Assembly: GCA_021806615.1 (NCBI GenBank)
Contig: JAJZRB010000002.1
Span: forward strand, 54,529-118,528
DNA length: 64,000 nt
Direction of reading: 5' to 3'
DNA from: a bacterium
GTDB lineage: Bacteria; Patescibacteriota; Patescibacteriia; Patescibacteriales; UBA12465
Part shown: positions 20,057 through 64,000 of the stretch, one piece after another
Position numbering within the stretch: the first letter of the stretch is position 1
Layout: each line of letters starts with the position of its first letter
Program-made: the position numbers and the translations under genes
Notes under the pieces: generated by a model
Told to the model about the DNA's origin: nothing
What the model saw: only the letters and a program-made list of their open reading frames with translations
Databases searched by the model: none

Positions 20057-20064
20057 AACCAGAT

Positions 20065-20093
20065 ATTATACAATTACTTTATGTATTTGTCAA
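20065..20093 (-). promoter_or_regulatory. Consensus sigma70 promoter abutting the GT4 start codon
   Basis: Minus strand reads TTGACA, 17 nt, TATAAT, atctggtt, ATG. Only 8 nt separate the -10 from the ATG and there is no SD. Confidence 0.65.
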
Positions 20094-20177
20094 AATAGTA
20101 TCATACTATTTTATTTTTGTCAATGGTAAATAAAATTTTTTAAAAAGGCCTTAAGATTATGGTTTTTTGAATATAAA

Positions 20178-20209
20178 AAACCTCCGCTTTACATTATAAG
20201 CAGAGGTTT
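20178..20209 (-). terminator. Rho-independent terminator after the 20229-20954 gene
   Basis: 12-bp stem. The single plus-strand mismatch becomes a G-U pair in the minus-strand RNA. A U6 run follows on the minus strand only. Confidence 0.75.
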
Positions 20210-20228
20210 GGGAAATATTTGGTTGACT

Positions 20229-20954: not shown

Positions 20955-20976
20955 GGCATTTACTCCTTTATAGTGA

Positions 20977-21828: not shown

Positions 21829-21892
21829 TATGAATTCCTCCTTTAGGAATTATTTGTTAAAAAAACTTTAATAATTTATGTGAATTTATTAA

Positions 21893-22642: not shown

Positions 22643-22687
22643 AATATAAGCTTTAAATAGAATATTAAAGTGTATTATAAATACATT

Positions 22688-22715
22688 TATTTGTCAAGGA
22701 CTATCTTGACAAATA
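22688..22715. promoter_or_regulatory. 11-bp-arm palindrome carrying back-to-back TTGACA hexamers in a divergent intergenic region
   Basis: tatttgtcaag, gactat, cttgacaaata. On the plus strand TTGACA (22706-22711), 17 nt, then TAAGAT (22729-22734). Confidence 0.5.
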
Positions 22716-22818
22716 TTGGTTTATAAATTAAGATTTAATGAATATTTATTAGGAGATACTTAGAAATAATGCATTTTTTATTAGATTTTATACTAATATT
22801 AAATAGAAATTAAATATT

Positions 22819-24090: not shown

Positions 24091-24104
24091 GAGATTTAAA
24101 ATCT

Positions 24105-25088: not shown

Positions 25089-25117
25089 GCTTAGCCATTT
25101 GATAAAAACCCCGATTT

Positions 25118-26341: not shown

Positions 26342-26345
26342 GTTC

Positions 26346-28725: not shown

Positions 28726-28762
28726 ATTCTAGTATAATGATAGCTTATAATTATTTTTAAAA

Positions 28763-28789
28763 GAAGGGTTGACTATTTATCAACCCTTC
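28763..28789 (-). terminator. Hairpin with short U-run between the GH5 and ligase-like genes
   Basis: Perfect 10-bp stem gaagggttga / tcaacccttc with loop ctattta. The minus strand continues UUUUAAAAA. May be a partial terminator or a processing site. Confidence 0.55.
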
Positions 28790-28799
28790 GCGGAAATTT

Positions 28800-29975
28800 T
28801 CAATTTTTAAATCCTTTTACTATCGCCTTGAGACGATCCAAGGGGTCGTTGGTCAAAGCTTTCCGGCCGCGCGGAGGAACGTAGTCAAGCTCGAACATCG
28901 TATCCGAGCAATCGCTGAATTGGTTCAGATAGTCGGCTTCTTTGTAAGCATGGTAAGTCCAGCCTAGTCCCAGTTCCTTGAAAATATCTATCAAGTCGCT
29001 CAAATATTGAGCGGCTCCAGGGAGGATCCTCATGACTGAAAATTCAGTGATGACGATCGGTATGCCCGAATATTTTTTCTGGAAATCGGCTATCGGATCC
29101 ATGGCCGCACGGAGTCTCTGCGCGTTCCACATGACTTTTTGCTTGCCGATATCAGAGAATAATCCGGGATAAGCCAGGGCTTTTTTCGGGTTGTCCCAGG
29201 CCGCCCATTGGAGAGTGTAGTCAATAGGACTATACATATGGACCGCAAACATCACTTTCCCGTCATCTAATAAGGCTTTGGGCGGAGTCCAATTGCTAGA
29301 AGCGATGGAATTTATCCGCCAGCTATAAGGAGGTGACGATAAGATGGTGTGGACGATATCGATTTTCCTGATTTCAGAAACCAGCTTGGTCTGTAGATTA
29401 TTCCACAGATTTCCTTTGTTCTTAGTTTCCGCGGCATTCCAATCGTTTTCTTTCGGCTCCGCTTCATTCAAGAGCTCGAAGATGACTGTAGAGTCCGGAT
29501 AATCTTCAAAGGTATCAGCTAATTTTTTCCAGGTTTCGACCAGTAGATTACGGAATTTTTCGCCGGTCTTACCCTGTTCCCAAAGGCGGAAATCTTTCCA
29601 GCCTGACCAGCGGACCAGTCCCGGAATTTCGTGGACATCAATGATTACCTTTATGCCCTTATCCTGGCAGAGATCGACGAGATCTTCTAATTTATCCAAT
29701 TTATCCGAATCAATTTTTTTCGGGCAAGTATCGTAATCAGATAAATCATATAGATCGTGGATCATGAGCATTACTCTTAAGGTATTTGCTCCCCACCGCT
29801 TTAGCGAGTCCAGATCTTTTTTCCCGATGTTAGTATAACAGTTAATGCCTCTTATTTTGCTCCCGTCTAGTCCCCTGTAATGCGGGATGATTTGCGGGGT
29901 ATTGTTTTGAGGATAGCTGCTAACAGATGATATTATAACAGCTATTATCGCTAATATTACATATGTATTTTTCAA
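28800..29975 (-). CDS. Secreted glycoside hydrolase family 5
   Basis: TTG start preceded by an AGGAG SD. Signal peptide present. GH5 signatures FELLNEAEP (acid/base Glu), AVHMY and PIVITEFSV (nucleophile Glu). Confidence 0.8.
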   Translation of the reverse strand: MKNTYVILAIIAVIISSVSSYPQNNTPQIIPHYRGLDGSKIRGINCYTNIGKKDLDSLKRWGANTLRVMLMIHDLYDLSDYDTCPKKIDSDKLDKLEDLVDLCQDKGIKVIIDVHEIPGLVRWSGWKDFRLWEQGKTGEKFRNLLVETWKKLADTFEDYPDSTVIFELLNEAEPKENDWNAAETKNKGNLWNNLQTKLVSEIRKIDIVHTILSSPPYSWRINSIASSNWTPPKALLDDGKVMFAVHMYSPIDYTLQWAAWDNPKKALAYPGLFSDIGKQKVMWNAQRLRAAMDPIADFQKKYSGIPIVITEFSVMRILPGAAQYLSDLIDIFKELGLGWTYHAYKEADYLNQFSDCSDTMFELDYVPPRGRKALTNDPLDRLKAIVKGFKN

Positions 29976-30062
29976 TTTGTGCTCCTATGATTTGTTTTCA
30001 AAAATTTTAATGTACAACTTAGTTGACTATAAAATATATAATATATTCAAGATATTGTCAAC

Positions 30063-31961
30063 TTATTTATTATTGATAAGCTGGAAAGTCTTGTCGCTTT
30101 CTAAATCAGTGCTCCACTGATAATTTTTTCCCTTCAGGGGCTTGACTGAAATATTTAAGGACTCGATCCTCTGCCCGGCTTGCTTCTGGACCAGAAGGCT
30201 GTATCGGGATGATTTTAGTTCCTGGTCGATGTTCGAAGGCAGACGGTAGCTGATGATAATTTCTCGCGATGTTCCTGGTTCAACCGTAAAGAAAAAACCG
30301 AACACCGTCTTGTTTAAAGCAGTATCGTTTTCTACGCTCATGTCAGCCGTCTTCTCGTCTACGCCGCTAAGAGAAACCAAGTGGCTGCCCAGAGGAGCAT
30401 AAACCCTGGTATAACTTCGATAACGGGTAGTCCGCCAGTCGAAATTTCCTTCATGGCGGTAATTTAATTTAACGGTGGCCGACAGCCCGCCCCGATCCTC
30501 GGTTACAGCATAAGATAGATTCTTTTTGACGACGACATCGCTCTTGAAAGCCCCTAAGTTAGAATCTACGGCCAGGAGATAATCGCCGCTCCATTTTTTT
30601 ACTTCTCCGCTGGCCCCCAGGCTGCGAGCTAGATCTTCCCAAGAGTCATTAGCGAAATAAAGCTGGAGGCTTTTAGAATCGATCGCCTTATCTATTATTT
30701 TCAGGAGTTCCGGCCAATGCTTGGGCGGCAGCTTGAGTAGGCGGTTCTCTAATTCAGCCATGAGCTCATTGATTATTTCCTTGCGATCCCAAGAAGAAAT
30801 ATTCTGATCTTTATAGGCGACTTCTACGTTGTACTGCAGGAGGGGTTGGAAATTATCAGCGTTATAATCAGCTCCTTTTACGCTGATAGGTCCGACTAAG
30901 CGGATCAGATCCGCTACGAGGTCGGGCGTAATCGCGGCTATTCCCGTGAAAGATTCGCTGGGCTGCTTGATCGCCAGGCTTTCTCCTTGGAAAATCTCAT
31001 TTATTTTCTTGGCCGAAGTCGGCCAATCCGGCGACCAGTTGGCATCACGTAAATACCATTTCTCTACTTTTAGATATTTTTTGATGATCGCGGGTGCTTG
31101 GAGCGTCCAGGAATTGCTTAAGGAAGCCGGCATATCCAGATGGTAGCTATCATCGCTCTTGAGCGAAACGATGCTTCCGTTATGGCTTTCTAAGATGCCG
31201 TAAACGCCGATGAAACCGCCGCTCGGACGGAGTTCGTCATTGTTCTGCAGGATCAGCAAAAAATGGCTGTTATTCGGGTATCCGGCTAAGGCTGGCAGTA
31301 ATTTTATAAGCGGAGATACGCGGGACATCAGAATGGTGGCTTGATTCAATTCTTGCCGGATATCGCTTATCTGCTGATAGACGGGCCAAAGTATGCCTAT
31401 CCGGTGGATCTTCTCCAGATTCAGAAGCGCTAGCTCCAGATCGGCTTTTAAGCCTGTCAGTTCTGGTTCCGATTGGTAAATCAATTGTAAGAAACGTATT
31501 TTATCGTTATCGGCTAGGTCGGAAAAATTAAGTTTGCCGTTCTCTGAGCTGATCTTGCTCAGATTATCGGCAATCGGCAGGATTCTGGTTAACGAGCGGC
31601 TTAAGATTTCCGCTGTCCTTAATAGATATTCTAAGTCGTTGACCTGGTTTCGGATGAGGGTCAGATTCTTTACAGCCGGGTTATCATGAGTGTCCTGGAG
31701 ATTTTTTAAAGCGTCTGAAAAATCAGCTTGAGCTTGATTCGCAAGGTTTAAGGAAACCCGCCATTCCTCTGCCTGGGCGGCCTGAACCGCTTGCGTCAAC
31801 TCAGCTTTTCCAGCCAAACCTTTGGCGGCAGCGCCCCGCAAGTCTTTATAGGCGCCGCTGAGCAGGATAATTACCAGGATTAAAATAGCCGCTATTATCA
31901 GAAGGGCGTATTTGAAGATTGACCAAGCGACACTGAGGGTACTAGCTAAATATTTTTTCAT
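30063..31961 (-). CDS. DUF4012 domain membrane-anchored protein
   Basis: N-terminal TM (YALLIIAAILILVIILL). Characteristic LRPSGGFIGVYG block. 4-nt ATGA overlap with the upstream regulator gene. Confidence 0.8.
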   Translation of the reverse strand: MKKYLASTLSVAWSIFKYALLIIAAILILVIILLSGAYKDLRGAAAKGLAGKAELTQAVQAAQAEEWRVSLNLANQAQADFSDALKNLQDTHDNPAVKNLTLIRNQVNDLEYLLRTAEILSRSLTRILPIADNLSKISSENGKLNFSDLADNDKIRFLQLIYQSEPELTGLKADLELALLNLEKIHRIGILWPVYQQISDIRQELNQATILMSRVSPLIKLLPALAGYPNNSHFLLILQNNDELRPSGGFIGVYGILESHNGSIVSLKSDDSYHLDMPASLSNSWTLQAPAIIKKYLKVEKWYLRDANWSPDWPTSAKKINEIFQGESLAIKQPSESFTGIAAITPDLVADLIRLVGPISVKGADYNADNFQPLLQYNVEVAYKDQNISSWDRKEIINELMAELENRLLKLPPKHWPELLKIIDKAIDSKSLQLYFANDSWEDLARSLGASGEVKKWSGDYLLAVDSNLGAFKSDVVVKKNLSYAVTEDRGGLSATVKLNYRHEGNFDWRTTRYRSYTRVYAPLGSHLVSLSGVDEKTADMSVENDTALNKTVFGFFFTVEPGTSREIIISYRLPSNIDQELKSSRYSLLVQKQAGQRIESLNISVKPLKGKNYQWSTDLESDKTFQLINNK

Positions 31962-32578
31962 AGTTTGATTTTCTTGTGGACATTATCTAGGAGGACCAGC
32001 GTTTTTCCTTCCAAAATATTATACAGGAAAATGTCCATGATATCCTCGCGGTAATGGAATTCTTTTTCGCTTAGGATAGTAAAGTTTATTTCCCGCCCCA
32101 AATCCTTTTCCAAATCTTTAATCAATTTTAAAAAAGCCGTTCTTCGAACCGTGCCGACAATCAAGATGTCGGTCTGTGCTTCCGGATAGTTGGTGAATAA
32201 TCCGGTTAAAGCTAAAAATTTCGGCTGGCAGATCTTATGCAGCCCTTCAATGAATTTTTGGCTGGATAAAATCTGCGCTTTGACGAATAGAGCCTTGATT
32301 TCCGGATAAAGGATGAAATTATGGTTAACAAAAAAATATTTTTTTTCCGCGGGTTTTTTCGATTTTTTGCCCGTCTTATCAATTGGCGTATTTTCTATTA
32401 TTTTTTCCTCGCTTACTAAGCCGAACAGGATAAGGTTGTCTAATTCATGGCGCACTGAGTTGAGAGGCAACTCCAGGTCGCGGGCAAGCGAAATCAAGGC
32501 ATGTTTCTTGTCTTCTGCCAAGAGGAGCAGATTCAAGATTTTTACCCGAGAAGCGGAACCGAAAATAGGTTCTAACAT
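31958..32578 (-). CDS. Winged-helix (ArsR-like) transcriptional regulator with C-terminal alpha/beta domain
   Basis: The N-terminal SRVKILNLLLL...LISLARDLELPLNSVRHELDNLILFGLV matches the wHTH pattern. Translationally coupled to the DUF4012 gene. Confidence 0.6.
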   Translation of the reverse strand: MLEPIFGSASRVKILNLLLLAEDKKHALISLARDLELPLNSVRHELDNLILFGLVSEEKIIENTPIDKTGKKSKKPAEKKYFFVNHNFILYPEIKALFVKAQILSSQKFIEGLHKICQPKFLALTGLFTNYPEAQTDILIVGTVRRTAFLKLIKDLEKDLGREINFTILSEKEFHYREDIMDIFLYNILEGKTLVLLDNVHKKIKL

Positions 32579-32655
32579 ATTTCTTTATTTATGGATTTAT
32601 AGTATAATATTCGTGAGAAACAGTCAAACCAAAAAACAGCCAGTAAACAGCTATT

Positions 32656-34917
32656 TTGCTTATGTATAACAAGATTGCGTCTATTATTTTAAACTCCGCC
32701 AAGGCGGCTGGTTTAAGCGATGTTTATGTCGCCCAGCCAGATTCTCTTAAAGAAAATTTGGCCGGTAAAATTTTTGTATTAGCCGAAATCGGCGGCAAGA
32801 AAAACGAAGGCCGTAAAATTTTTGATTTTTTAGTCGCCGCGCTCAATGATAATTATTATAATGACGATAAGATCCTATTCCGAGGCAAGATCGAAGGGTT
32901 GAAGATAGAAAACATCTTTGAAGCCGCTGTCACTAAGACTAACAAGAATTTAGCTGATTTTTTAATCAGCGAGAAGATCCGGTTGAATCCCTCGGCTGCC
33001 AATATCACCATCGGCGTTATTTATGAAAATAAATTGCATTTTGCTAATTTCGGACGTAATCGAGCGCTTCTTATTTACCGTCGCGGCGACGATTATGAGA
33101 TAATCAACGTTGAAGCTAATGCCTCCGAAGCGCCGGATAAGGCAGAAGAATCCGAAGCGGCCGCTGGCAAGGCTACTAAGCTTTTCTCCTCGGTCATCAG
33201 CGGCGAGGTTCCCTTCAGCTCCTATTTTATTTTTGCGAGCGAAGCTCTGCCCGAATATCTTTCCGGCAAGGAGATGATGAATATCGTCACCAAGCTGCCG
33301 CCGATCACCGCCGCCGAACAGATCAAGAATGTCCTGATGCGCATGAATACCTATGTGCCGTTTTTAGGGATAATCATTAAGAATACCGCCGGCCTGCCCA
33401 GCCAAGAAACTAAAGAAGAAGTGAATGAAAGCCTATCGATGCGCGCTTCCGGGTCATCCCTGAATTATACGGAAGAAAAGACCGAACAAATGCTCGCTCC
33501 GGCCGGATTGATAAGTTTTCCTAAGATCCTGAGAAAACTCAAAGAATTATCCGCCAAATGGCAGCCTAAGCCGGCTTCGGAACACAAGAAATACCTAAGA
33601 GCGGAAGATAAGCCGGCTAGTCCAGCCGGGCAAGCCCCGCTAGATCTCGGGCAGATAAAGAGCTTGAATCTAGCCCGCTCCGACTCCTTTTTGCTGAAGG
33701 AGAAAATATTTTTTAAGAAAAAGCCAGGCTGGCTAGGAGTCAGTTTGAAAAAAGTCTTCCAATCTTTGCCCAATCTTTTTACCCCCGATCTATGGTCTGA
33801 TCTCGTCCGTAAGTCAAGAGAGTGGGTAAAAAGCTTGAATTTAAGAAATCGTTGGCTTTTTGGCGCTCTCGGCCTGGTAATATTGATTTTTATCGTCAGC
33901 CTCATTTATACCAATTGGAGCCATGAACGCCAGGCCGCCCAAGCTAATTTTACTAATCTGGTAAACGCCATCGAGGATAAGGAGAACGCGATTGACGCCC
34001 ACTTGCTATATAATGATGAAGTCGGCGCCGGAACGGCTCTAGTTGAAGCCCAGGCGCTCTTGAGTTCCCTGCCGCAGGCCAGATCCGACCAGAAAGATGT
34101 CTATGACCGCCTGGCCGCTCGGCTTGAGGCGGCTAGCGAGAAGATCCAGAAGATTATCAAGGTCAGCGGAGTTACAGTCTTCGATAATTTAAGCGGGTTG
34201 GGAGTGAATAGCCTAGTGTACGCCGCCGGAAAAATTTACGCGGCTGGCGGACAAGCCGTATATCTTTTGGCGGAGTCAGCCTCATCGACTCGGCTGGCAG
34301 TTAACGGCGCCCAAGATCTGACTCATCCAGTATTTGAAAAAAATGACCGTATCTATTATCAGGACGCTGACCGCATCGTCCAATTCAATATCAAGGCTAA
34401 AAACAGCAGCGCGCTCCAAGTTAACGGATTAGATAAGAGCCTGGTAACCAGCTATTATGTTTTTAATGGCAATTTATATATCCTAGCTAAGAGCCAGAAT
34501 CAGATCTACCGCTATAATCGTTCTGCCAATACTTTCGGCGCTAAGAGCGACTGGCTTAAAGAGGCCGTCGATTTGAGCCAGGCGAGCGATTTAGGCATTG
34601 ATGGCGATATTTACATCTTAAAGAATGATGGCAGCGTCCTGAAATTCCGTAAGGGACAGGCAGCGGATTATGCGGCCGGAGCCTTGTCGCCAGCTATGAC
34701 CGGCGCCTCAAAGCTCATCGTCGGAGGCAATTATCTCTATATTTTCGAAGCCAGCTCCAAGCGTCTCGCGGTCCTAGCTAAGAAAGACGGCCACTTGATA
34801 AATCAGTATGTCGTTGATTCCTTAAAGCAGCCTAAGGATCTGGCCGTTGATGAGGCTGGCCGCGCCGCTTATTTCCTGGACGGCGACCAGGTCGTGAAGA
34901 TTAGCCTGAATCAGTAA
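32656..34917 (+). CDS. Large bitopic protein of unknown function (cytoplasmic N-domain, TM, extracytoplasmic beta-propeller-like C-domain)
   Basis: TM helix WLFGALGLVILIFIVSLIY near aa 400. C-terminal repeated motifs NGNLYILAKSQNQIYRY, DGDIYILKNDGSVLKF and GGNYLYIFEASSKRLAVL. ATG 32662 is an alternative start. Confidence 0.65.
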   Translation: MLMYNKIASIILNSAKAAGLSDVYVAQPDSLKENLAGKIFVLAEIGGKKNEGRKIFDFLVAALNDNYYNDDKILFRGKIEGLKIENIFEAAVTKTNKNLADFLISEKIRLNPSAANITIGVIYENKLHFANFGRNRALLIYRRGDDYEIINVEANASEAPDKAEESEAAAGKATKLFSSVISGEVPFSSYFIFASEALPEYLSGKEMMNIVTKLPPITAAEQIKNVLMRMNTYVPFLGIIIKNTAGLPSQETKEEVNESLSMRASGSSLNYTEEKTEQMLAPAGLISFPKILRKLKELSAKWQPKPASEHKKYLRAEDKPASPAGQAPLDLGQIKSLNLARSDSFLLKEKIFFKKKPGWLGVSLKKVFQSLPNLFTPDLWSDLVRKSREWVKSLNLRNRWLFGALGLVILIFIVSLIYTNWSHERQAAQANFTNLVNAIEDKENAIDAHLLYNDEVGAGTALVEAQALLSSLPQARSDQKDVYDRLAARLEAASEKIQKIIKVSGVTVFDNLSGLGVNSLVYAAGKIYAAGGQAVYLLAESASSTRLAVNGAQDLTHPVFEKNDRIYYQDADRIVQFNIKAKNSSALQVNGLDKSLVTSYYVFNGNLYILAKSQNQIYRYNRSANTFGAKSDWLKEAVDLSQASDLGIDGDIYILKNDGSVLKFRKGQAADYAAGALSPAMTGASKLIVGGNYLYIFEASSKRLAVLAKKDGHLINQYVVDSLKQPKDLAVDEAGRAAYFLDGDQVVKISLNQ

Positions 34918-45685: not shown

Positions 45686-48190
45686 TTATTTGCTCGCGCC
45701 GCTATAGGCTATGGCTCTTACGATATTCCAGGCCAGAGGGCTTATCGGAGAATGAGCATAAACAGCTCGGAAAGATTTTATAGCCTGCTTCTCGCTGGCG
45801 GTATTACGGGAGCTTGGCCTTAAACCGTAGGCGATGATGGTTACGGCGTTAGCATCATGGCTGTCCTTCATGTCGGCTGGCCGATCATAGACTTTCAGGA
45901 ATTCCGCTTTAGCGCCGGTTTCCGCTTTAGCGCTAGTTTCTCCCGGCCAGCGTCCAGAAGATATTTTCAATATATCAGACCACTCCGCAGCGGTTTGCGG
46001 CAATTTGCTATAAGCTTGCAAATAAGATCCGAGAACGCCAGCTCGTTCGCCCGCCCCTAATTTCAAAGTGCTAGGCGTGCCATAAACGACGAAATAATCA
46101 AGATTATTTATTTCTGCCGCGCCCAATTTAACTTTAGTCAGCAGCGGATCGACATAACGGCTTAAGTAAGATGTCTCCAGTGAAGCATTCTTTACGGCGG
46201 ATACATCATTCAGGATCGAATTGACATCGCCGCCATCAAGGATATCGGCCTCCCGGGTGATTTTTTGCAGCAAGTCGTCGGATCCCGCGTGAGTATCCGC
46301 ATTACCTGGATTGGAGTTGTCCGAAGAATCAGAAGACGGTTGTAGTTCAACTTTGACTGATAATGAATTACAGCTATTGGTAGCGGCGCAAACCGTGATG
46401 ACGGTCGATCCTATATTTTTCCCTAAAACGATTAAATTGCCGCCGTTGATGCTGGCCTGGACCATCGTGGGATTAGAATTGGCAGAAATATAATAATTGC
46501 TGTTAGCCCCGCCTGAAACAGCGACGGACAGGCTTTCCCCGACTCCGATAGCCGGATTAGATCGGCTGAAAGCGAGCGGAGCATTGGAAGTATTATTTGA
46601 TGATACGGCGGCATAAATTATGCCGCATTGGCCGCCATTCTGGCAGATAGTCGCGTTGGCATTACCCGAGCTGAGAGCCTTGACCGTTATTTTGTTGTTA
46701 TTCAAGACGAAGGACGCGACGTTCTGGTTGTTGCTGCTGGAAATATAATATCCGCCTGCCCCGAATAGAGAGACATCAGTCGATCCGCCGACGTTCAGAG
46801 TCAAGTTGTTATTGCTGAAAGTCAATTGCGTGCTAGAACTGACGCCGTTGACCAGGACCGATAACTGGACGCAAGCTCCGGCCGCCGAACAGACGTCCAA
46901 ATTGCCTGAGCCCGCCCCGACTCCGGTCAAGGTCAGGATATTATTGTTAAGGCTGGCTTGGAAAATCGCGTTGTTTTTTGAATCATTACTCAGGCTATAA
47001 GGAAAAGTCCCGCCGGAAACGGTAACGCTCACCGCTTGGCCGACCTGTAGCCATAAGTTATTCTGGCTGAGGCTTATCGGTCCGCTCGTAGAGTAGCTGA
47101 CCGTCGCCGTTATGGATCCGCAATTGCCATTATTAGCGCAGACCGTAATGATTGATGATCCGGCGCTTCCGCCCGTCAATGCCAGGTTATTGGTATTAGT
47201 GATCGTGGCTGTGACGACGCTGGAATTAGAGTTGGAAGAGATACTATAGCTGCTGCCTCCGGAAATGAGAATATTTAAATTCTGGCCGATGAGCAAGGAG
47301 GGATTAGTCTGGTTAAAAACCAAGGAAGAAGAACTGGTCGTGCCGGCGCTCGCGTTGATTATGCCGCAAGAGCTCATATTAACGGCGCAGACCGTAATAG
47401 CGGCGGTACCGCTCGTATTGTTAGCGTTCAAAGTTATCGTTGAACCGCTGAGCGAAGAAGATATCACGCTCGGGTTGGAATTATTCAATATCGTATAATT
47501 GCCCGTGCCGTTCAATATGGAAACCGTAGAGCTCTGCCCATAAGCGATGGTCAGGTTGGTCTGGCTGAAAGTCAGAGCTTGGGCGCCGGAATTCTGGACG
47601 GTCAGATAGGTGCTCGCGCAATTAGAGGTGGTTCCGAGAGCGCAGAGAGTGACGACGGTTTGCCCATAAGCATTGGCGATCAGGGTAATCTGGTTGTTAT
47701 TGATATTGACGTTAGCTATTTGTGGATTGGAATTATTCAGGAGATAAAGAGGTTGGCCGCTATTATTGGTAACGGACAAGGTTGAGGTTTGCCCGACGGT
47801 CAGGACCAATCCCGTTTGGTTAATGGTAATGGCGCCGCCTGAAGCCAGGGTATTATAAGGCCAGGCGACAGAGCTTGAAGAAGCATTATTTATCTTGACG
47901 TAGACGGAGCTATTCGGAGCAATGCCGTAGGTAGCCGTGCTGACGGTCATGCTTAGAGATCCGCTGGCGTTTGTCTTCCCTAAGACATCCAGATAGGCCG
48001 CGCCGCTATTCTTCTGGTAATATATCAGGACGCTGGCATTAGGATCGCCCGTTACGTTTATTTGGACATTATCGCCATCGCCGGTACTGCTGAGCGCCAG
48101 CGTCGGAGCCGCCGCGCGCGCCGCGTTTAGGGAGGCCAAGAAAATAAAAGCGACCGCGACCAGCGAAACGAAGAATAGATTTTTTTTCAT
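45686..48190 (-). CDS. Secreted surface protein with six Ig-like (Big_2-like) repeats and an unknown C-terminal domain
   Basis: Signal peptide with AxA site (LNAARAAAP). S/T/N-rich repeats. The C-terminal roughly 220 aa have no recognised motif. Confidence 0.8.
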   Translation of the reverse strand: MKKNLFFVSLVAVAFIFLASLNAARAAAPTLALSSTGDGDNVQINVTGDPNASVLIYYQKNSGAAYLDVLGKTNASGSLSMTVSTATYGIAPNSSVYVKINNASSSSVAWPYNTLASGGAITINQTGLVLTVGQTSTLSVTNNSGQPLYLLNNSNPQIANVNINNNQITLIANAYGQTVVTLCALGTTSNCASTYLTVQNSGAQALTFSQTNLTIAYGQSSTVSILNGTGNYTILNNSNPSVISSSLSGSTITLNANNTSGTAAITVCAVNMSSCGIINASAGTTSSSSLVFNQTNPSLLIGQNLNILISGGSSYSISSNSNSSVVTATITNTNNLALTGGSAGSSIITVCANNGNCGSITATVSYSTSGPISLSQNNLWLQVGQAVSVTVSGGTFPYSLSNDSKNNAIFQASLNNNILTLTGVGAGSGNLDVCSAAGACVQLSVLVNGVSSSTQLTFSNNNLTLNVGGSTDVSLFGAGGYYISSSNNQNVASFVLNNNKITVKALSSGNANATICQNGGQCGIIYAAVSSNNTSNAPLAFSRSNPAIGVGESLSVAVSGGANSNYYISANSNPTMVQASINGGNLIVLGKNIGSTVITVCAATNSCNSLSVKVELQPSSDSSDNSNPGNADTHAGSDDLLQKITREADILDGGDVNSILNDVSAVKNASLETSYLSRYVDPLLTKVKLGAAEINNLDYFVVYGTPSTLKLGAGERAGVLGSYLQAYSKLPQTAAEWSDILKISSGRWPGETSAKAETGAKAEFLKVYDRPADMKDSHDANAVTIIAYGLRPSSRNTASEKQAIKSFRAVYAHSPISPLAWNIVRAIAYSGASK
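46346..47830 (-). repeat. Six in-frame tandem repeats of about 82-85 aa
   Basis: Repeat starts at aa 121, 206, 290, 372, 456 and 539. Each ends in a Cys-x5-7-Cys loop (TLCALGTTSNC, TVCAVNMSSC, TVCANNGNC, DVCSAAGAC, TICQNGGQC, TVCAATNSC). Confidence 0.75.
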
Positions 48191-58338: not shown

Positions 58339-59790
58339 CTAAATCTTACTTAGGTCTAGTTCTTCGCTAAAATGGATTTTTTCTACGAATTCGGGCATAT
58401 GGCTGACCATTATAATCGGGCCTTTATAGTCGTTTATAGCCTTAGCAATGATTGGAAGATGGCGGAAATTTATATGATTGGTCGGTTCGTCCAATATCAG
58501 TAGTCCGGGCCGCATCAAGACTAAGCGGGCAAATGACAGGAGGCCTTTTTGCCCTTCGGACAAATCAGCCACTTTATGCCCCATTAATTCCCCGGTAATC
58601 AAGAAACCGGCAGCTACCGAGCGCATTTCCGGTTCGCCCAGCCCTTCAGCTAAGACGTCTTTCAGCGAATCGAAAACTGTCTTTTTAAAATCAAGAGTAG
58701 AAAAATCTTGGCTGTAATATCCGACTTTCACTCCGGCTAAGATTTTCTGCCCCTCTTGCTTTCCGGCGACGAGCGATCTTAACAGAGTGCTTTTACCGAT
58801 ACCGTTAGGCCCGATTACTAATAAGCGGTCTTTTTTCCTTAAACTCCGGTCGATATCCTTAACCGCCGGTTCGTGGTTTTTTATAATTTTTATTTTTTTC
58901 AGACTGACTATCTCCCCGTTTATTTCTTGGGCCGGGATATCGAATTCGCGGATAGTCCTGTCTTCTCTCCGGACCTCAACCTTATTTTCTTCCAATTCTT
59001 CTGTCTCTTCTTTCATTTTTTGCGCTAATTTACGCATTTTACCGCCTTTATGAGCGAAAAAATTGACTTTCTCTTTCCGGTCCTTGATCTGTTTTTCGAG
59101 TTGGGCATTTTCTCGCTGTTCCCTTTCTACCCGGCGAGCGATCTCCTCCACGACAGAATAATAATCGCCGACATACATTTCCGTTTGATGCGTAAAGCTG
59201 TCCAAGTAGATGACTCCCTCGGTAAAGCAGTTTAAAAAATCAGCATCATGGGAGATGACCATCACTGTCTTATCATAAGTAAGGAGAAAGCCTATCAGAT
59301 GATCAATGCCTGCTTTATCTAAATTATTAGTCGGCTCATCTAAAAGCAGGATATCAGGATTTTCTAAAAGCGAGTAGGCCAAAAGAATGCGTGCCTGTTG
59401 TCCGCCGGATAAGCTCCCGACCGGCTTATTTAAAGGGACGTCAAAATTAACCGCGTCAAGGGCTTTAGCGATGCGGCTCTTGATATTTCCAGGGATAACA
59501 GTGAAATCTTTAGAAAAGTATTCCTCTACTGTCAAGGCTATATCTTCCCTACTAATAGTTTGCCGTGCAGTACCGATGGTGGCTCCGGCGCCGACGGATA
59601 TTTGGCCGTTTTGCGGAGTCAATTCTTTTTTTATCAGGCTGAAAATAGTACTTTTTCCCGCGCCGTTCTGCCCCATGAGAGTCACTTTAGCGCCGCGGCG
59701 CAAACTGAAACAAGCCTCATCTAAAATCGGCTTCTTATGGAGATATTCAAATTTGACTTTATCAAATCTAAGGATGACTTCTTCGGCCAT
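58339..59790 (-). CDS. ABC-F family ATPase (tandem ABC domains, no TM domain)
   Basis: Two Walker A sites (GQNGAGKST, GPNGIGKST), two signatures (LSGGQQARILL, LSEGQKGLLSF), and a charged inter-domain linker. Confidence 0.9.
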   Translation of the reverse strand: MAEEVILRFDKVKFEYLHKKPILDEACFSLRRGAKVTLMGQNGAGKSTIFSLIKKELTPQNGQISVGAGATIGTARQTISREDIALTVEEYFSKDFTVIPGNIKSRIAKALDAVNFDVPLNKPVGSLSGGQQARILLAYSLLENPDILLLDEPTNNLDKAGIDHLIGFLLTYDKTVMVISHDADFLNCFTEGVIYLDSFTHQTEMYVGDYYSVVEEIARRVEREQRENAQLEKQIKDRKEKVNFFAHKGGKMRKLAQKMKEETEELEENKVEVRREDRTIREFDIPAQEINGEIVSLKKIKIIKNHEPAVKDIDRSLRKKDRLLVIGPNGIGKSTLLRSLVAGKQEGQKILAGVKVGYYSQDFSTLDFKKTVFDSLKDVLAEGLGEPEMRSVAAGFLITGELMGHKVADLSEGQKGLLSFARLVLMRPGLLILDEPTNHINFRHLPIIAKAINDYKGPIIMVSHMPEFVEKIHFSEELDLSKI

Positions 59791-59928
59791 GTTATGAATA
59801 TTAATCTTTTATAAATAAAACCCCGCGGCCATGATTTGGAGCGGGACATTCGTTGCCACTCGCGCAGATTACGACTTAATTTACTAGAATAGCCTAACAC
59901 AGAGACGAGGTCCAGTCAATCTGATCGT

Positions 59929-60603
59929 TCATGATTTCTTGAAAATATAGATTATAAAGCGGTATATAAATAAACCGGAAAATACTAGGCCGGTCGATAG
60001 ATAAACCGTCTGCATCCAGACAGTATTAGAGTCCGTGCCGATAAACGCGCCATGGAGGAAGGAAAGTATGAATAATGGATAGACGGCATAATGTATTCCC
60101 CGCCAAGCCTTTTTATATTTCAGTCGGAAGAATAATGAACTGAAGATAACGACTAATAGGATATAAAAAGCAAAAATACCTAGACTGAGAAAAATGGGGT
60201 TATAGCTGGAAGCGAAGGGGATCAATATGTCCAACCAATTAAAATCAACGAATTTATCAAAAAGCAAAGCCAGGATATGGGTCAAAAGAGCAACACCGAG
60301 AGCCAGGCTCAGATATTTATGGACGACCCAGGCCTGGACGGGGTTGATAAAACGGTAAATATAACTAGTCGTCATGCCAGTGCCCAGCAAAACTACGAGG
60401 AACATCAGAAGATAGGCAGTGATGCCGGCTGTCCTGGTTATGAACCAAGGCAGGCTGCTGATATCTGGCGCTACCGTAGAATTATTTACGCTGCTTTGCG
60501 CCAATGATAAACTGGAGCCGAAATCAAGATAAAGCAGGCCCAGAGCGATTAGGACTAAAATTGAGAGTAACAGTAATCTGGGTAATCTAAGGGAGGAAAT
60601 CAT
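59929..60603 (-). CDS. Ferric-reductase-domain (NOX/FRE-type) six-TM di-heme membrane protein
   Basis: The WFITRTAGITAYLL start of the FRD fold. His95-x13-His109 in one helix and His171-x12-His184 in another. Confidence 0.75.
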   Translation of the reverse strand: MISSLRLPRLLLLSILVLIALGLLYLDFGSSLSLAQSSVNNSTVAPDISSLPWFITRTAGITAYLLMFLVVLLGTGMTTSYIYRFINPVQAWVVHKYLSLALGVALLTHILALLFDKFVDFNWLDILIPFASSYNPIFLSLGIFAFYILLVVIFSSLFFRLKYKKAWRGIHYAVYPLFILSFLHGAFIGTDSNTVWMQTVYLSTGLVFSGLFIYRFIIYIFKKS

Positions 60604-60606
60604 ATA

Positions 60607-61566
60607 TTATTTAAGAAATTGGTTGCCCGTCGGGAAAATAAATTTTTTTTTATCCTTAGTGAATATAATACAGGCTGAGTCTGATTCTTTATCGATGAAT
60701 CTTAAGCCTTCATCCTGGCCTAAGATAAGAATGGTCTTGGCAAAAACATCGGCTCGTACGGCGTTTGAGGAAATGGCCGTCACTGATAGTATATCATTTA
60801 TAAGCGGTAAGCCGCTACGCGGGTCGATGATATGGTGCCACTTGAAGCTGCCGTTTTGGCCGGAACGCCTGATTATTCCGGAGGTCGCTATGCCCAGCCG
60901 CTTCCCGGCAGTGTTGATGAAAAAGAGGTTTTTATCCGGAGAGAATGGATCCTGAACGGCGATATCCCAGCCGGTTTTTCCCTCTTTATTGCCAGAGACG
61001 ATAAGATCGCCGCCCGCCGATAGCCAATAATCATTGACACCTTGGAAATATTCCCGGCTTAAACGATCTATGATATAGCCTTTCCCTATCCCGCCGAGGT
61101 CGATCCTGAGCCCGGCAGGCTTATTGACTACTCGGCCAGCAGTTTTTAGATTATCTATTCTTTTACGTTTTCGGAAGATATCTTGTAATTTTATCGTGTC
61201 CGGCCGATCCGATGCCTGACTATTTGCCCCGAAATCAAGCTGGTCAAAGCTCCGCTTATAGCCCACGGCTTCCAAATTGCCGATGACGGTCGGATCAAAT
61301 ATCCCGCCCGTTTTTTGATAATAATATTTTATTTCCTTTAGTAGCTCGGCCATGTCGGCGCTTACTTCCAAGACGCTTTTTTTTGAATCATTGAATTGGG
61401 CCAATTCGTTTCCTTCTAAAAAACGGCTGAAGCGCCTTTCAAAATTTAAAATTTCCGCTTTAGCGTATTCCAAAATATTCTTTTGTTCGCTAGTAAGTGA
61501 GGCGACCAGCTCTATCTCTGTTCCCAAAGCCTTGAACTCTCGCCACATCATCTTAGTCTCTAGCAT
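60607..61566 (-). CDS. apbE: FAD:protein FMN transferase ApbE
   Basis: FDPTV, IDLGGIGKGY, LSAGGDL, GIATSG, HHIIDPRSG. No signal peptide or lipobox at the N-terminus. Confidence 0.9.
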   Translation of the reverse strand: MLETKMMWREFKALGTEIELVASLTSEQKNILEYAKAEILNFERRFSRFLEGNELAQFNDSKKSVLEVSADMAELLKEIKYYYQKTGGIFDPTVIGNLEAVGYKRSFDQLDFGANSQASDRPDTIKLQDIFRKRKRIDNLKTAGRVVNKPAGLRIDLGGIGKGYIIDRLSREYFQGVNDYWLSAGGDLIVSGNKEGKTGWDIAVQDPFSPDKNLFFINTAGKRLGIATSGIIRRSGQNGSFKWHHIIDPRSGLPLINDILSVTAISSNAVRADVFAKTILILGQDEGLRFIDKESDSACIIFTKDKKKFIFPTGNQFLK

Positions 61567-61597
61567 AGTTTATCTCTTTAATCGCGCATGACCATCG

Positions 61598-62644
61598 TCA
61601 GGACATCCTGGTCCTGGGCATCGGTATTTGCATCATGGTCTGTGGCGGCGCTTGGACTGGTGTCGGAGCTATAGTCGGAGCCGGAACAGCTGGTTTTATA
61701 GCCGGAATCTTTTTCGGAGAGATCTTCTTTTCTATGATAGGCGCGGCAGAGCTAGCCGCAGCGCTAGGCTTAGTCTGATCGGAACTTACCGCGCTATATT
61801 TTTTACTGGCGGCGATGGCCGCCGAACGGCTGATCAGATTGAAGATCAAGACGAACAAGACGACGGCTAGTCCAAGAGCGTAAGAAAAATTCTTCAAACG
61901 CGGCCAGAAAGCATCGTCAGGAATCATAGAAAATTCTTCCATCCTGATCTGGTCCTTATCTACCCCGAGACTCATCAGGTGGCTGACCATGGCGTTCATG
62001 AACGGCACCGGTCCGCATAAGAAGAAGCTCTTGCCTTTGACATTGCCGACAAAATCCCGGATAAGAGAGGCATCTATACGTCTATATAAAACGTTCTTAT
62101 CATCCGCAGGCCCCTTCTCTTCGGTAAAAGAGAAAAGAGCCGATAAGTTCGGATTACCTTTTATCGCTTCTTTTATCTCTTTGTAGAAAACGGCTCCTCG
62201 GGCTGTTTTGGCGCTATATATCAGCGAGAGCTTATTAGATAAATTTAAATCAACGGCATAGTTTAGGGCGCTGATGAAAGGGGTGATGCCGATGCCGCCC
62301 GCGATAAGAACGAGATCAAAATATTTGTTTTCATCATAAAAGAATCGGCCATAAGGGCCGGAAACCAAAATCTCGTCTCCGGGCCGGAGGCGCGCCAAGC
62401 CCTGCGTGAACGGACCCTGTATCCTGATGCCGAAACGAAGACAATCTTTCCTGGTCGGAGAGCTGGCGATGGAAAAAGCATGCTTATCTTCAAAGATCCC
62501 CTGCCTATTTTTATAGGCGATCATCGCGTATTGGCCAGGCTGATAATGGAAAACCGGCCAGCCCCTCTTATCTACTAATTCTAAGATAACCAGATCAGGA
62601 ACAGGTTGATAAATTTGTTTTATATAGTATTTATATTCGGACAT
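61598..62644 (-). CDS. NOX/FRE-type FAD/NAD(P)H dehydrogenase domain protein with C-terminal TM anchor and Pro-rich tail
   Basis: HAFSIASSP (FAD), GPYG, LIAGGIGITPFISAL (NAD(P)H), FFLCGP. Then TM FSYALGLAVVLFVLIFNLI and a P/A-rich C-terminus. Confidence 0.8.
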   Translation of the reverse strand: MSEYKYYIKQIYQPVPDLVILELVDKRGWPVFHYQPGQYAMIAYKNRQGIFEDKHAFSIASSPTRKDCLRFGIRIQGPFTQGLARLRPGDEILVSGPYGRFFYDENKYFDLVLIAGGIGITPFISALNYAVDLNLSNKLSLIYSAKTARGAVFYKEIKEAIKGNPNLSALFSFTEEKGPADDKNVLYRRIDASLIRDFVGNVKGKSFFLCGPVPFMNAMVSHLMSLGVDKDQIRMEEFSMIPDDAFWPRLKNFSYALGLAVVLFVLIFNLISRSAAIAASKKYSAVSSDQTKPSAAASSAAPIIEKKISPKKIPAIKPAVPAPTIAPTPVQAPPQTMMQIPMPRTRMS

Positions 62645-62746
62645 AAAGCTCGCATGACTGCCCCAGTGCTCCGGGAATGCTCATATAATACGTCTAGAAC
62701 AGAAAAATATTCAAAGATATCCCAGAATAACACGGGATTATTCCTG

Positions 62747-63670
62747 CTATTTCAAGCTATTTTCCACGTTTTTAAGTTTGCGGGCAGATCGGTGCAGAAG
62801 CTTTTTTTCTTCAGGCGATATCTTGATGTCAATATCGCGCGTCACGCCCTTCGCGCCGATAACGAGCGGCAGGCTTAAGGAGACCCCTCTTAAGCCGAAT
62901 TTTCCATCTAGAGGATGAGAAACGGTAAATACTGTATTCTTATTCAATAAGATAGCCTCGATGAGGCTGGCGACTCCGGCGGCAATCGCATAGTAAGTCG
63001 CCTGTTTGCCGGTTATTATGGCATACGCGGCGTTCTTAGCCTGATTAAAAATAATCTCCTTTTTCTTTCTGGATATCTTCTGGAAGCGGTCCAAAGGCGT
63101 ATTGCCGATCATGACCGTGCTCCAGAGCGGCACCTCGCTATCGCCATGTTCCCCGATGATATAGGCGTGCAAGCTCTTCGGGTCGATAGATAATTCCTGC
63201 CCTAAGAGAAAACGCAATCGCGCCGAATCCAAAATCGTGCCTGAACCGAAAATCTGCCGTTTTTTCTTCGGGAACATCTTAATGGCGATATTCGTCAGGA
63301 TATCTACCGGATTAGTCACGATGATGACGATGATATCCTGGTTATGCTTGAAGATCTCGGGCATCAATTCCTTGATAATAGCGGAATTCTTTTGCAGGAG
63401 GTCCAAGCGCGTTTCTCCTACTTTTTGAGATGCGCCGCAGCTGATGACAGCGATACGACTATCTTTCATATCAGCATAAGAACCAGCCTTGATCTTGGTG
63501 TAGCCCAAAAAAGGCACAGAGTGCTGCAGATCCATAACCTGCGAAAGGCAGACTTTCTTATTGATATCAATAAGGGCTATCTCCTCGGCCACTCTCGCCG
63601 ATATAAGACTATAAGCCGTAGTGCTGCCGACCATGCCGGCGCCGATTATAGTTATTTTATTTTTAAGCAT
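62747..63670 (-). CDS. ldh: L-lactate dehydrogenase
   Basis: IIGAGMVGS Rossmann motif. GASQKVGETRLDLL has Gln at the LDH/MDH discriminating position. IGEHGDSEVPLWS. Confidence 0.9.
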   Translation of the reverse strand: MLKNKITIIGAGMVGSTTAYSLISARVAEEIALIDINKKVCLSQVMDLQHSVPFLGYTKIKAGSYADMKDSRIAVISCGASQKVGETRLDLLQKNSAIIKELMPEIFKHNQDIIVIIVTNPVDILTNIAIKMFPKKKRQIFGSGTILDSARLRFLLGQELSIDPKSLHAYIIGEHGDSEVPLWSTVMIGNTPLDRFQKISRKKKEIIFNQAKNAAYAIITGKQATYYAIAAGVASLIEAILLNKNTVFTVSHPLDGKFGLRGVSLSLPLVIGAKGVTRDIDIKISPEEKKLLHRSARKLKNVENSLK

Positions 63671-63683
63671 ATCCTATGGATTC

Positions 63684-63902
63684 TTATTTAGGCTCTTCCG
63701 TCTTGTCGGAATTAGTGTTAAGGCCCAATATTTTATATAGGGCGCAAAAACCGGTTATCGCCGTCAAGAGCATGATGAAGCCTAGGACGTAGAATACTAT
63801 CTGGAGAACCCCTGATAGCCAGAACCAAGCTAGGATCAGGAATATCAAAGCTAATATCACGCGCCCTACTCGGTCAGATTTGCCTTCATTTTTTTGAAAC
63901 AT
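63684..63902 (-). CDS. Small two-TM membrane protein, DUF2892/YgaP-like
   Basis: The DRVGRVILALIFLILAWFW...ITGFCALYKILG pattern is typical of DUF2892. Confidence 0.6.
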   Translation of the reverse strand: MFQKNEGKSDRVGRVILALIFLILAWFWLSGVLQIVFYVLGFIMLLTAITGFCALYKILGLNTNSDKTEEPK

Positions 63903-64000
63903 AAAATTAGATATTAATGAATTAATCGTTAGTTTATCCCGATACTATTATAGGCGAAATGCCATCTTTAGTCCATTTTTGCATATTAAAAAGTCGCATT

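Follow-up and report, generated by a model that had tools for sequence, protein, structure and literature searches.

Why would a Patescibacteriota bacterium keep the gene for a flavin transferase between those for a membrane-anchored dehydrogenase and a putative heme protein? Patescibacteria (the candidate phyla radiation [CPR]) are usually described as fermenters without an electron-transport chain. The question is raised by a 64,000-nucleotide (nt) stretch, referred to here as the window, of contig JAJZRB010000002.1 (GenBank assembly GCA_021806615.1, positions 54,529 to 118,528, forward strand; lineage UBA12465). Three open reading frames (ORFs) on its minus strand, at 61598-62644 (348 amino acids [aa]), 60607-61566 (319 aa), and 59929-60603 (224 aa), are separated by spacers of only 31 nt and then 3 nt and constitute one operon. 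An earlier reading made from the DNA letters (the sequence-only reading) had described this co-directional layout and interpreted it as a split NOX-like transmembrane electron conduit that includes an ApbE flavin mononucleotide (FMN) transferase. The analysis reported here bears out both the layout and the conduit. We favor, at a little less than even confidence, a two-polypeptide NOX/MsrQ-like transmembrane electron conduit combined with a flavinylation accessory module, in which the target of ApbE is a motif at the end of the dehydrogenase tail.

Results

A putative two-heme protein and its dehydrogenase

The last gene of the operon (59929..60603, minus strand) encodes a six-transmembrane (TM) ferric-reductase-domain (FRD) protein of 224 aa that, from Pfam, AlphaFold2 (AF2), and Foldseek comparisons, is predicted to hold two b-hemes. 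The Pfam profile Ferric_reduct (PF01794) matched it with 31.1 bits, above the gathering score of 28, along profile positions 1 to 120 of 121, and a precomputed PF01794 match was recorded for 50 of the 57 heme-protein homologs listed. Six long helices were obtained both from hydropathy and from the AF2 model (pLDDT of 83), where they occupy residues 6-30, 51-78, 88-115, 136-162, 164-189, and 195-223. The protein contains only four histidines, which form the pairs H95-x13-H109 and H171-x12-H184 already picked out in the sequence-only reading. In the AF2 model, the first pair lies on helix 3 (88-115) and the second on helix 5 (164-189), and all four histidines are invariant across 42 aligned homologs. 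Membership in the NOX family was judged by a His-x12/14-His pattern in TM3 and TM5 of a six-TM domain (PMC5676040), and SpNOX and CsNOX5 (PMC5676040; PDB 8qt6 and 5o0t) likewise have six TM helices, with His-x13-His on helix 3 and His-x12-His on helix 5. The top Foldseek matches were SpNOX (8qta/8qt6), the CsNOX5 TM domain (5o0t), DUOX1, STEAP1/2, and NOX5, at modest E values of 0.01 to 0.5. When PDB sequences were searched with a profile of the heme protein, nothing significant came up for the TM core, and only the TSP3-like repeats found a match, in a biofilm surface protein.

The charge distribution of the 224-aa protein fits a topology with the N terminus inside and would therefore place His95 and His171 near the cytoplasmic face and His109 and His184 near the outer face. 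On the strength of this positive-inside distribution and of NOX topology, His95 (codon 60319..60321, cytoplasmic half of helix 3) and His171 (60091..60093, cytoplasmic half of helix 5) are the predicted ligands of an inner heme, and His109 (60277..60279, outer half of helix 3) and His184 (60052..60054, outer half of helix 5) are those of an outer heme, with all four codons on the minus strand.

The first gene (61598..62644, minus strand) encodes a membrane-anchored FNR-type NAD(P)H dehydrogenase of 348 aa, assigned from Pfam and PDB relatives, with a flavin adenine dinucleotide (FAD)- and NAD-binding module at approximately aa 1 to 243. This module had been classed in the sequence-only reading as NOX/FRE type rather than generic FNR. 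The motif strings behind that claim, HAFSIASSP, LIAGGIGITPF, and FFLCGP, are all present, but the specific assignment did not hold: NAD_binding_1 scored 42.7 bits, whereas the NOX-type NAD_binding_6 scored 16.3 bits, under its cut-off of 22.2, and FAD_binding_8 (26.0 bits, cut-off of 22) and FAD_binding_6 (25.7 bits) were tied. In NCBIfam and PDB sequence searches, the nearest relatives were the FNR modules of flavohemoprotein, sulfhydrogenase gamma, and NqrF, with the dehydrogenase (DH) domains of SpNOX, CsNOX5, NOX5, DUOX, and NOX2 lower in the same PDB match list. Fold comparison, made via a model of the natural fusion protein P0103 (see below), gave equal results for the Hmp FAD/NAD module (TM-score of 0.87) and the SpNOX DH domain (0.88), so that the FNR module is as near to the latter as to any other. 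These Pfam, sequence, and fold comparisons describe a compact FNR-type dehydrogenase that is not demonstrably NOX specific.

The 348-aa protein has no signal peptide, and its FNR domain is therefore cytosolic. As the sequence-only reading had it, the protein ends in a TM helix of its own and a Pro/Ala-rich tail. Residues 249 to 280 are hydrophobic (61805..61900, minus strand; hydropathy peak of 2.45) and make up the single anchor helix. The remaining 68 residues (aa 281 to 348; 61601..61804, minus strand) form a predicted extracytoplasmic tail, or tether, of which 54% is Pro, Ala, Ser, and Thr.

Conservation of the gene order and natural fusions

Homologs of all three proteins were found almost exclusively in Patescibacteria, with those of Falkowbacteria closest. 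The 42-sequence alignment was too diverse for pattern design, for which a 12-sequence alignment was used. The order FNR-ApbE-heme protein recurred in about 20 distinct Patescibacteria loci, including loci from Falkowbacteria and Saccharibacteria. Every related locus with enough flanking sequence keeps the three-gene arrangement, in the series dehydrogenase, sometimes a small gene, ApbE, and heme protein. The cluster is also present in far more distant lineages (L022, from Saccharibacteria, and L023, L024, L025, L026, and L027). With four histidines that do not vary among 42 homologs and a gene order kept in every related locus with enough flank, the arrangement is not a product of chance.

Natural variants join the two core proteins directly. 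P0103, from locus L029, consists of the dehydrogenase, a helix, and then helices 2 to 6 of the heme domain, whereas P0129-131 have the heme domain followed by the dehydrogenase, which is the NOX order, and end in ...FTAY. In locus L028, the dehydrogenase stops right after its helix, and a five-helix heme protein of 184 aa begins 2 nt later. Because dehydrogenase-heme fusions exist in both orders, the interpretation of the operon as a split NOX-like conduit holds; the Ferric_reduct score, the SpNOX/CsNOX5/DUOX/STEAP fold, and the strict synteny point the same way. The L028 and P0103 variants also indicate that the anchor helix of the dehydrogenase corresponds topologically, as judged from such sequence comparisons, to TM1 of the relatives' ferric-reductase fold and that whatever follows it emerges outside. 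With a cytosolic FNR domain and one TM helix ahead of it, the tail of the window protein would thus be placed outside the cytoplasm.

In most relatives, a fourth gene that is absent from the window lies between the dehydrogenase and ApbE genes (L001:4627-5043, L004:4490-4936, L005:4271-4762, L024:7172-7660, and L030:6271-6753). It encodes a signal-anchored, extremely acidic protein with Asp/Glu runs whose end, DSDQDGIxDxxDKYPGEDDFAYxLxDxNxNGIADDLE, is a TSP3/EF-hand/dockerin-like cation-binding repeat with no Pfam match. A PF18884 repeat of the same type is inserted in external loop A of most heme-protein homologs and is missing from that of the window. These Asp-rich TSP3/EF-hand-like repeats of the relatives hint at cation or metal binding near the outer heme. 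In two distant lineages, at L022:8860-9711 and L024:9467-9967, the heme-protein gene is followed by one for a secreted Big_14-like immunoglobulin-domain protein, whose start codon overlaps or adjoins the preceding stop codon; this protein is absent from the window and may be a further extracytoplasmic partner.

ApbE and a conserved motif at the dehydrogenase C terminus

The middle gene (60607..61566, minus strand) encodes an ApbE-family FAD:protein FMN transferase of 319 aa, which matched the Pfam ApbE profile (PF02424) with 181.3 bits over positions 2 to 265 of 266. Its 13 relatives in the PDB (best E value, 1.5e-24) include TM1553, FmnB, and the Escherichia coli, Vibrio cholerae, and Treponema pallidum ApbE/Ftp proteins. 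The motifs ATSG, WHHIID, and RAD align with vATSG, yHHIlDP, and aD of TM1553 and FmnB, and the enzyme keeps the conserved active-site Ser/His/Asp positions, which are S241, H257, and D285 in V. cholerae (PMC12052999). The lack of a signal peptide or lipobox, a claim of the sequence-only reading, was confirmed: no upstream extension of the ORF is possible because it already begins at the first start codon after a stop, and the N terminus is not hydrophobic. All of the 120 closest homologs are likewise devoid of a signal peptide, lipobox, TM segment, N-terminal extension, or hydrophobic N terminus, and none of the ApbE copies in the approximately 25 loci has a signal peptide, a lipobox, or a hydrophobic N terminus. 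The 120 proteins range from 186 to 338 aa in length (297 to 338 aa in all but two), and the first beta-strand motif begins 6 to 10 residues past Met1 in 85 of the 90 in which it was recognized (it was unrecognized in 30). A scan of a genome collection with a single ApbE sequence as the query returned no matches.

One position sets this ApbE apart. At residues ~272 to 278, a Lys (ADVFAK) lies four residues past the conserved Asp, where the Thermotoga maritima (ADALST) and Listeria (DGLST) enzymes have Thr. Of the 120 closest homologs, 96 have Lys there; the L022 copy, from Saccharibacteria, keeps Thr. That Thr is probably a Mg2+ ligand in T. pallidum Ftp; its replacement by Lys may alter the metal dependence of the enzyme.

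The tails of the dehydrogenases are otherwise unalignable and vary in length (among 120 homologs, from ~100 to ~170 aa in the measured motif-bearing classes and up to ~300 aa in an acidic-ended class), yet their C termini are strongly conserved. The window protein ends in PMPRTRMS-COOH (61601..61624, minus strand), in which T345-R-M-S348 maps on [S/T]-G-A-[S/T]; from the homolog C termini, we regard this motif as a candidate ApbE acceptor. The pattern P-x-T-x-[V/M/A]-S-COOH ends 61 of the 120 homologs, with Pro present in 59 and Thr in 58 of the 61. Another 10 end in T-[G/S]-x-S-[R/P]-x-R (e.g., TTGVSRAR), and 21, which are Saccharibacteria-like, end in C..SG[VIA]T..C (C-T-T-S-x-S-G-V-T-T-C type), with SGVT in 15 of the 21. 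Together, the three classes account for 92 of the 120 homologs; placed in register, all fit [S/T]-x-[V/A/M/I/S]-[S/T], and the TGVS, TSAS, and SGVT versions coincide in part with [S/T]-G-A-[S/T], the canonical ApbE motif. The long acidic-ended tails contain three to four internal copies of P-x-T-x-[V/A/M/S]-S at distances of ~25 to 40 residues. Ten such tails hold 29 copies versus 1.7 expected, a number reached by none of 2,000 composition-preserving shuffles, and the repeats recall the multi-flavinylated proteins of PMC8238504. A covariation of ApbE Lys/Thr with tail-motif Arg/Gly was considered and rejected, since the TGVS class has Lys too.

The sequence-only reading had found no canonical acceptor in the neighboring proteins and had left the flavinylation target open. 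The first statement stands, as neither the strict [ST]G[AS][ST] nor the canonical D-x-x-[S/T]-G-A-[S/T] motif occurs in the three operon proteins; the second is superseded, as the dehydrogenase's own C-terminal motif is now a candidate. A Pfam scan found no domain in the tails, tethers, or small cluster proteins and no FMN_bind domain in any cluster protein. The minimal motif of ApbE is a linear stretch of 7 residues that works best at a protein terminus, the changes A->V and G->A retain ~50% of the activity, and the change of the upstream D->A costs little (PMC12052999). Flavinylation motifs have also been predicted on unstructured C-terminal extensions of FMN_red proteins (PMC11334425).

Joint presence and loss of ApbE and the motif-bearing tether

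The natural variants allow the association of ApbE with the motif to be followed across loci. The simple expectation that a motif-less dehydrogenase goes with the lack of ApbE fails in three of them: in L025 and L026, which have acidic-ended tails, and in L027, which has a NOX-order fusion, the dehydrogenase is without the motif, yet ApbE is present. The discrepancy is resolved by a separate small gene beside ApbE in these loci, whose product has an N-terminal TM anchor and a Pro-rich linker and ends in ...PQTNVS, PVTAVS, or PRTTVS-COOH. With the motif on a separate tether gene, the tether can be described as a module that goes with ApbE in every case, either as part of the dehydrogenase or as a protein of its own.

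The reverse case is provided by the tail-less variants L028 and L029, both of which are also without ApbE. L028 can be compared with L030, a flank-syntenic locus that carries the full set: a 419-aa dehydrogenase that ends in VTSASPVR, the acidic protein, ApbE, and a TSP3-bearing heme protein. The two dehydrogenases are 89% identical. Relative to L030:5001-8594, L028:5001-6378 is an in-place deletion variant that has cleanly lost the dehydrogenase tail, the acidic protein, and ApbE, and its heme protein is short of TM1 and loop A. A dehydrogenase of 273 aa is left, followed after 2 nt by a five-TM heme protein. L028 is effectively a natural knockout of the accessory module. In L004 (3600-4000, on a 1.27-Mb contig), which at first looks like an exception to this pairing, the tail is frameshifted, so that the called protein ends in ...ENVVG while the +1 frame ends in ...MPAPMPRTRMS, as does the window C terminus; this is either an assembly error or a recent pseudogenization of the tail. 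In total, about 20 distinct loci have both ApbE and the motif, two have neither, and none is discordant.

Proposed mechanism

In the mechanism that we propose, the FAD-containing FNR-type dehydrogenase of 348 aa would oxidize NAD(P)H in the cytosol while being held at the membrane by its C-terminal helix. Electrons would pass from FAD to the inner b-heme (His95/His171) and then to the outer b-heme (His109/His184) of the 224-aa protein. Family membership, invariant residues, synteny, and natural fusions are the basis of the dehydrogenase and heme-protein steps. It is strongly supported that these two proteins make up one functional unit, anchored jointly in the membrane, and that ApbE and the motif-ended tether are parts of it. 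From motif similarity and co-occurrence, we infer that ApbE may join FMN via a phosphoester to Ser348, or to Thr345, of the tail end ...P-R-T-R-M-S. This would most likely take place in the cytoplasm because this ApbE has no export signal, and so on the still-unfolded tail, ahead of translocation. Flavinylation before export, which would remove the need for extracellular FAD, is speculative. Once outside, the tethered FMN could accept electrons from the outer heme. Their onward transfer, for which Fe(III), O2, or a partner or host surface might be the external acceptor, is a speculation, as is the identity of that acceptor. The outcome would be the regeneration of NAD(P)+ or the reduction of an extracellular substrate.

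Several points weigh against this scheme. A predicted cytosolic enzyme and a predicted external tail end make a paradox that remains; a literature search found no precedent for pre-export flavinylation, and the N-terminally anchored stand-alone tethers, if exported cotranslationally, would leave a cytosolic ApbE little time. The T-R-M-S of the window fits only the two hydroxyl positions of [S/T]GA[S/T], with Arg for Gly and Met for Ala, and the upstream Asp is missing. The Lys that stands where relatives have Thr, beside the conserved Asp, means that the chemistry of this ApbE may differ. The co-occurrence counts are not phylogenetically independent, and the acidic protein and the TSP3 loop have also been lost in both deletion variants; the window is without these two parts, so the tail is its only accessory part. 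The P0103 fusion model, which was built from an alignment of trimmed sequences, has a pTM of 0.63. Patescibacteria are generally regarded as lacking heme synthesis, so heme loading is an assumption.

A more elaborate version of the scheme is a natural "flavin-tag," which we consider possible but doubtful. A cytosolic ApbE, perhaps with Lys in place of a metal ligand, would attach FMN by a phosphoester to [S/T]-x-[V/M/A]-S at the very end of an intrinsically disordered, Pro-rich tether or at several sites in it, export would follow, and the flavin would shuttle electrons from the outer heme of a quinone-free conduit.

Alternative roles for ApbE

The strongest competitor keeps the conduit but moves the flavin. 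ApbE would fix FMN on a cytosolic site, in the dehydrogenase or in a cytoplasmic loop of the heme protein, and so render a noncovalent flavin site covalent, while the tail end would serve in docking on the outer face, in binding to the wall or a partner, or as the site of another enzyme's modification. There would be no topology paradox, since none of the 120 closest ApbE homologs has a signal peptide; cytosolic ApbEs that act on cytosolic enzymes are known, and ApbE can turn noncovalent flavoproteins into covalent ones (PMC12052999 and PMC11334425). PMC12525009 describes MsrQ as a flavocytochrome with an FMN site, and the heme protein has a conserved G-M-T-T in loop B, where helix 2 ends on the cytoplasmic side. 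This loop was rejected as the acceptor: the Thr pair is Ala-Ala in P0051, whose cluster still has ApbE. The "FSIASS" and "G-x-F-T" strings of the dehydrogenase were rejected as well, being generic FNR cofactor motifs that are unaltered in the ApbE-less L028, and no conserved [S/T]GA[S/T]-like motif was found in the cytosolic parts. The L028 dehydrogenase, at 89% identity to its relative, shows no compensating change, and the L028 heme protein keeps loop B; with both core proteins essentially unaltered in the absence of ApbE, neither seems to depend on it. A cytosolic target also leaves the constant pairing of the tether module with ApbE unexplained, and we judge it unlikely.

ApbE might instead handle flavins without being a flavinylase, as an Ftp-like FAD pyrophosphatase or as an FAD/FMN chaperone that supplies the conduit in flavin scavengers. 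We find this improbable. In its favor, T. pallidum Ftp is an FAD pyrophosphatase of the ApbE family (PMC4767422), the Lys that 96 of 120 homologs have instead of Thr beside the conserved Asp suggests a different metal or pyrophosphate chemistry, and the window operon has no canonical acceptor motif. Against these stand the retained Ser/His/Asp positions, which are conserved for transfer (PMC12052999), the joint loss of ApbE and tail while the flavin-dependent dehydrogenase is kept, and the conserved hydroxyl-bearing motif; the last two would go unexplained.

More improbable still is an ApbE that leaves the cytoplasm, through an unrecognized export route or by release, and modifies the tail there in the manner of classical extracytosolic systems. 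Every characterized ApbE linked to a membrane conduit does act outside the cytoplasm (PMC8238504), and the SGVT between two cysteines in the Saccharibacteria-type tails suggests an extracytoplasmic disulfide loop. However, 0 of 120 homologs have a signal peptide, lipobox, TM segment, or N-terminal extension, and external FAD would be needed; no flavin exporter was seen in the clusters, whole genomes not having been searched. Least credible, and very improbable, is an ordinary MsrQ-type module that supplies electrons to a soluble reductase outside the cytoplasm, for instance MsrP, and has ApbE and the dehydrogenase as neighbors by coincidence: some homologs are annotated in their source records as "YedYZ heme-binding membrane subunit," but no MsrP or molybdoenzyme gene was found in ~25 loci or among the 48 window ORFs scanned (including 45 of the 52 that reach 150 aa or more; most of the remaining seven are antisense overlaps), and the strict synteny and the gene fusions show functional coupling with the dehydrogenase.

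Surroundings of the operon

The L-lactate dehydrogenase gene (ldh; TIGR01771, 346 bits) lies on the same strand, 102 nt away and directly upstream of the 348-aa gene. The sequence-only reading had remarked on this neighbor; the adjacency is real in the window, but ldh is absent from the conserved neighborhood of relatives. A promoter-like site in the 102-nt spacer between ldh and the FNR gene (62685..62714, minus strand) matches the sigma-70 consensus at 9 of 12 positions, which is weak evidence, and a promoter scan of the region gave no more such sites than shuffled sequences did. A terminator-like GC-rich hairpin followed by a U-run (59811..59846, minus strand), ~80 nt downstream of the heme-protein gene, likely marks the end of the operon. 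It was read from the sequence and is likewise weak evidence, with a fold of -12.1 kcal/mol (z = -1.3 versus shuffles); its loop is too long for the scan tool, whose output did not include it. An Rfam search of 59000-64000 found no riboswitch or other RNA. An ABC-F ATPase gene lies beyond the hairpin, and a YgaP-like membrane protein of 72 aa with two TM segments (63684-63902, minus strand; PF11127, 67 bits) is encoded directly upstream of ldh on the same strand.

Elsewhere in the window, an 834-aa secreted repeat protein (45686-48190, minus strand) has, in its last ~200 residues, a domain that is not covered by Pfam. This domain is found at the extreme C terminus of more than 1,200 representative proteins of 155 to more than 3,200 aa, and 20 of 20 representatives fetched end in the near-invariant ...W(D/N)(I/A)VRAIAYSGA(K/T/S)(R/K)-COOH, with SGASK as the end of the window copy. 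The domain may serve to anchor or sort proteins at the CPR cell surface. The SGAS one residue before the C terminus was considered as a second ApbE tag and set aside as probably unrelated, because homologs often have Lys at the fourth position (AYSGAKR). A cell-envelope/glycan region at 17584-34917 encodes several GT4 glycosyltransferases, a Wzy-type O-antigen ligase-like protein, a radical SAM/SPASM enzyme, a GH5 cellulase, and a DUF4012 protein, and it includes ORFs of 206 to 753 aa without a Pfam match (17584-18840, 20229-24090, and 31958-34917). An 830-aa protein (357-2849, plus strand) has a weak match to TrwB/type IV coupling proteins, a tyrosine recombinase (Phage_integrase, 141 bits) is encoded at 11269-12225 (plus strand), and the GC content falls to ~0.41 to 0.42 at 10-12 kb, 16-18 kb, and 20-24 kb; these features could mark mobile or recently acquired segments.

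Discussion

Parts of this system have precedents. The split arrangement with ApbE, which the sequence-only reading presented as if new, has published counterparts in the ApbE-associated "MsrQ-like" systems (PMC8238504) and, as far as PMC5676040 reports it, in MsrQ-Fre. The former, mostly actinobacterial, combine PF01794, apbE, and a substrate with an FMN-binding domain, and PF00175 is frequently fused (Méheust et al. 2021, PMC8238504). Like them, the window operon clusters a PF01794 six-TM, putatively two-heme protein with apbE and a PF00175 NAD-binding module, and the proposed flow is from NAD(P)H through a membrane cytochrome to a flavinylated extracytosolic acceptor. In those systems, however, the substrate has an FMN-binding domain, ApbE is secreted or lipidated, and the MsrQ-like protein usually carries the NAD-binding domain as a C-terminal fusion, whereas here there is no FMN_bind, DUF2271, or DUF3570, ApbE is signal-less, and the dehydrogenase is separate, upstream, and self-anchored. 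The Patescibacteria family falls outside the scope of that study because genes without signal peptides were discarded in it.

NOX enzymes are single polypeptides with a C-terminal DH domain and without ApbE or a tail, in contrast to the separate upstream dehydrogenase of the window, although the relatives P0129-131 do have the NOX order. In E. coli, MsrQ and Fre (Juillan-Binard 2017, as summarized in PMC5676040) are a separate FRD heme protein and FNR-type flavin reductase that jointly mimic NOX; Fre is soluble and encoded elsewhere, and MsrQ serves the periplasmic MsrP. Compared with the pair as summarized there, the reductase of the window is membrane anchored and encoded in the same operon, no MsrP was found, and the unit includes ApbE. 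STEAP proteins, which were among the structural matches, also have an NADPH-binding dehydrogenase N-terminal to an FRD-superfamily heme domain, as in the gene order described here and in P0103, but they are eukaryotic, have an unrelated F420-type dehydrogenase fold and one heme plus a membrane-embedded FAD, and lack ApbE.

With regard to flavinylation, the FLEET system of Listeria (Ndh2, demethylmenaquinone [DMK], EetA/B, FmnA/FmnB, and PplA) offers a fermentative monoderm in which a covalently flavinylated surface protein, modified by the ApbE-family FmnB, moves NADH electrons outward. FLEET relies on a quinone, EetA/B, and a lipoprotein whose FMN-binding domains are folded, and flavinylation occurs outside the cell with exported FAD; in the window system, a heme conduit would take the place of the quinone, and a linear motif at the C terminus is the proposed acceptor. 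Cytosolic ApbEs exist (PMC12052999): like the window enzyme, that of Klebsiella pneumoniae is signal-less and active in the cytoplasm, and for the engineered flavin-tag, a short terminal peptide suffices (PMC12052999). In Klebsiella, the enzyme modifies a soluble fumarate reductase, whose FMN-binding domain is folded, and the flavin-tag is an artificial D-x-x-[S/T]-G-A-[S/T] sequence (PMC12052999); a literature search found no description of a natural terminal flavin-tag destined for export. ApbE-associated MsrQ-like systems, the split FRD/FNR pair (MsrQ-Fre), the N-terminal dehydrogenase (STEAP), and a cytosolic ApbE (Klebsiella) are thus already known. The same search found no description of a Patescibacteria-wide operon of this kind, of a uniformly signal-less, Lys-bearing ApbE, of the absence of an FMN-binding domain, or of a terminal or repeated motif on a Pro-rich tether. 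If the tail is the target, an extracellular flavin relay would be built here in a way not described before.

The sequence-only reading had further placed the conduit in an organism without visible respiratory genes, which 64 kb of DNA cannot decide. In a Saccharibacteria relative (L022:482-5204), the cluster stands immediately downstream of a COX2-COX1-COX3-COX4 heme-copper oxidase operon and a UbiA (heme O synthase-like) gene, so at least some CPR with this system handle heme and O2.

A conserved two-heme operon leading from NAD(P)H to the outside would give CPR a quinone-free redox outlet or an extracellular reductase. According to a 2025 survey, which left the role of FmnB open, 54% of CPR genomes have it without the other FLEET genes (PMC12153355); the operon would explain the presence of ApbE/FmnB in about half of CPR genomes that have no other flavin-based electron-transfer genes (PMC12153355). 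Should the tail motif be the acceptor, it would represent a new class of ApbE substrate, a linear terminal tag rather than a folded domain, with a new order of events in which modification precedes export, and it would be a natural counterpart of the engineered flavin-tag. If this interpretation is true, episymbionts regarded as purely fermentative would gain an extracellular electron outlet.

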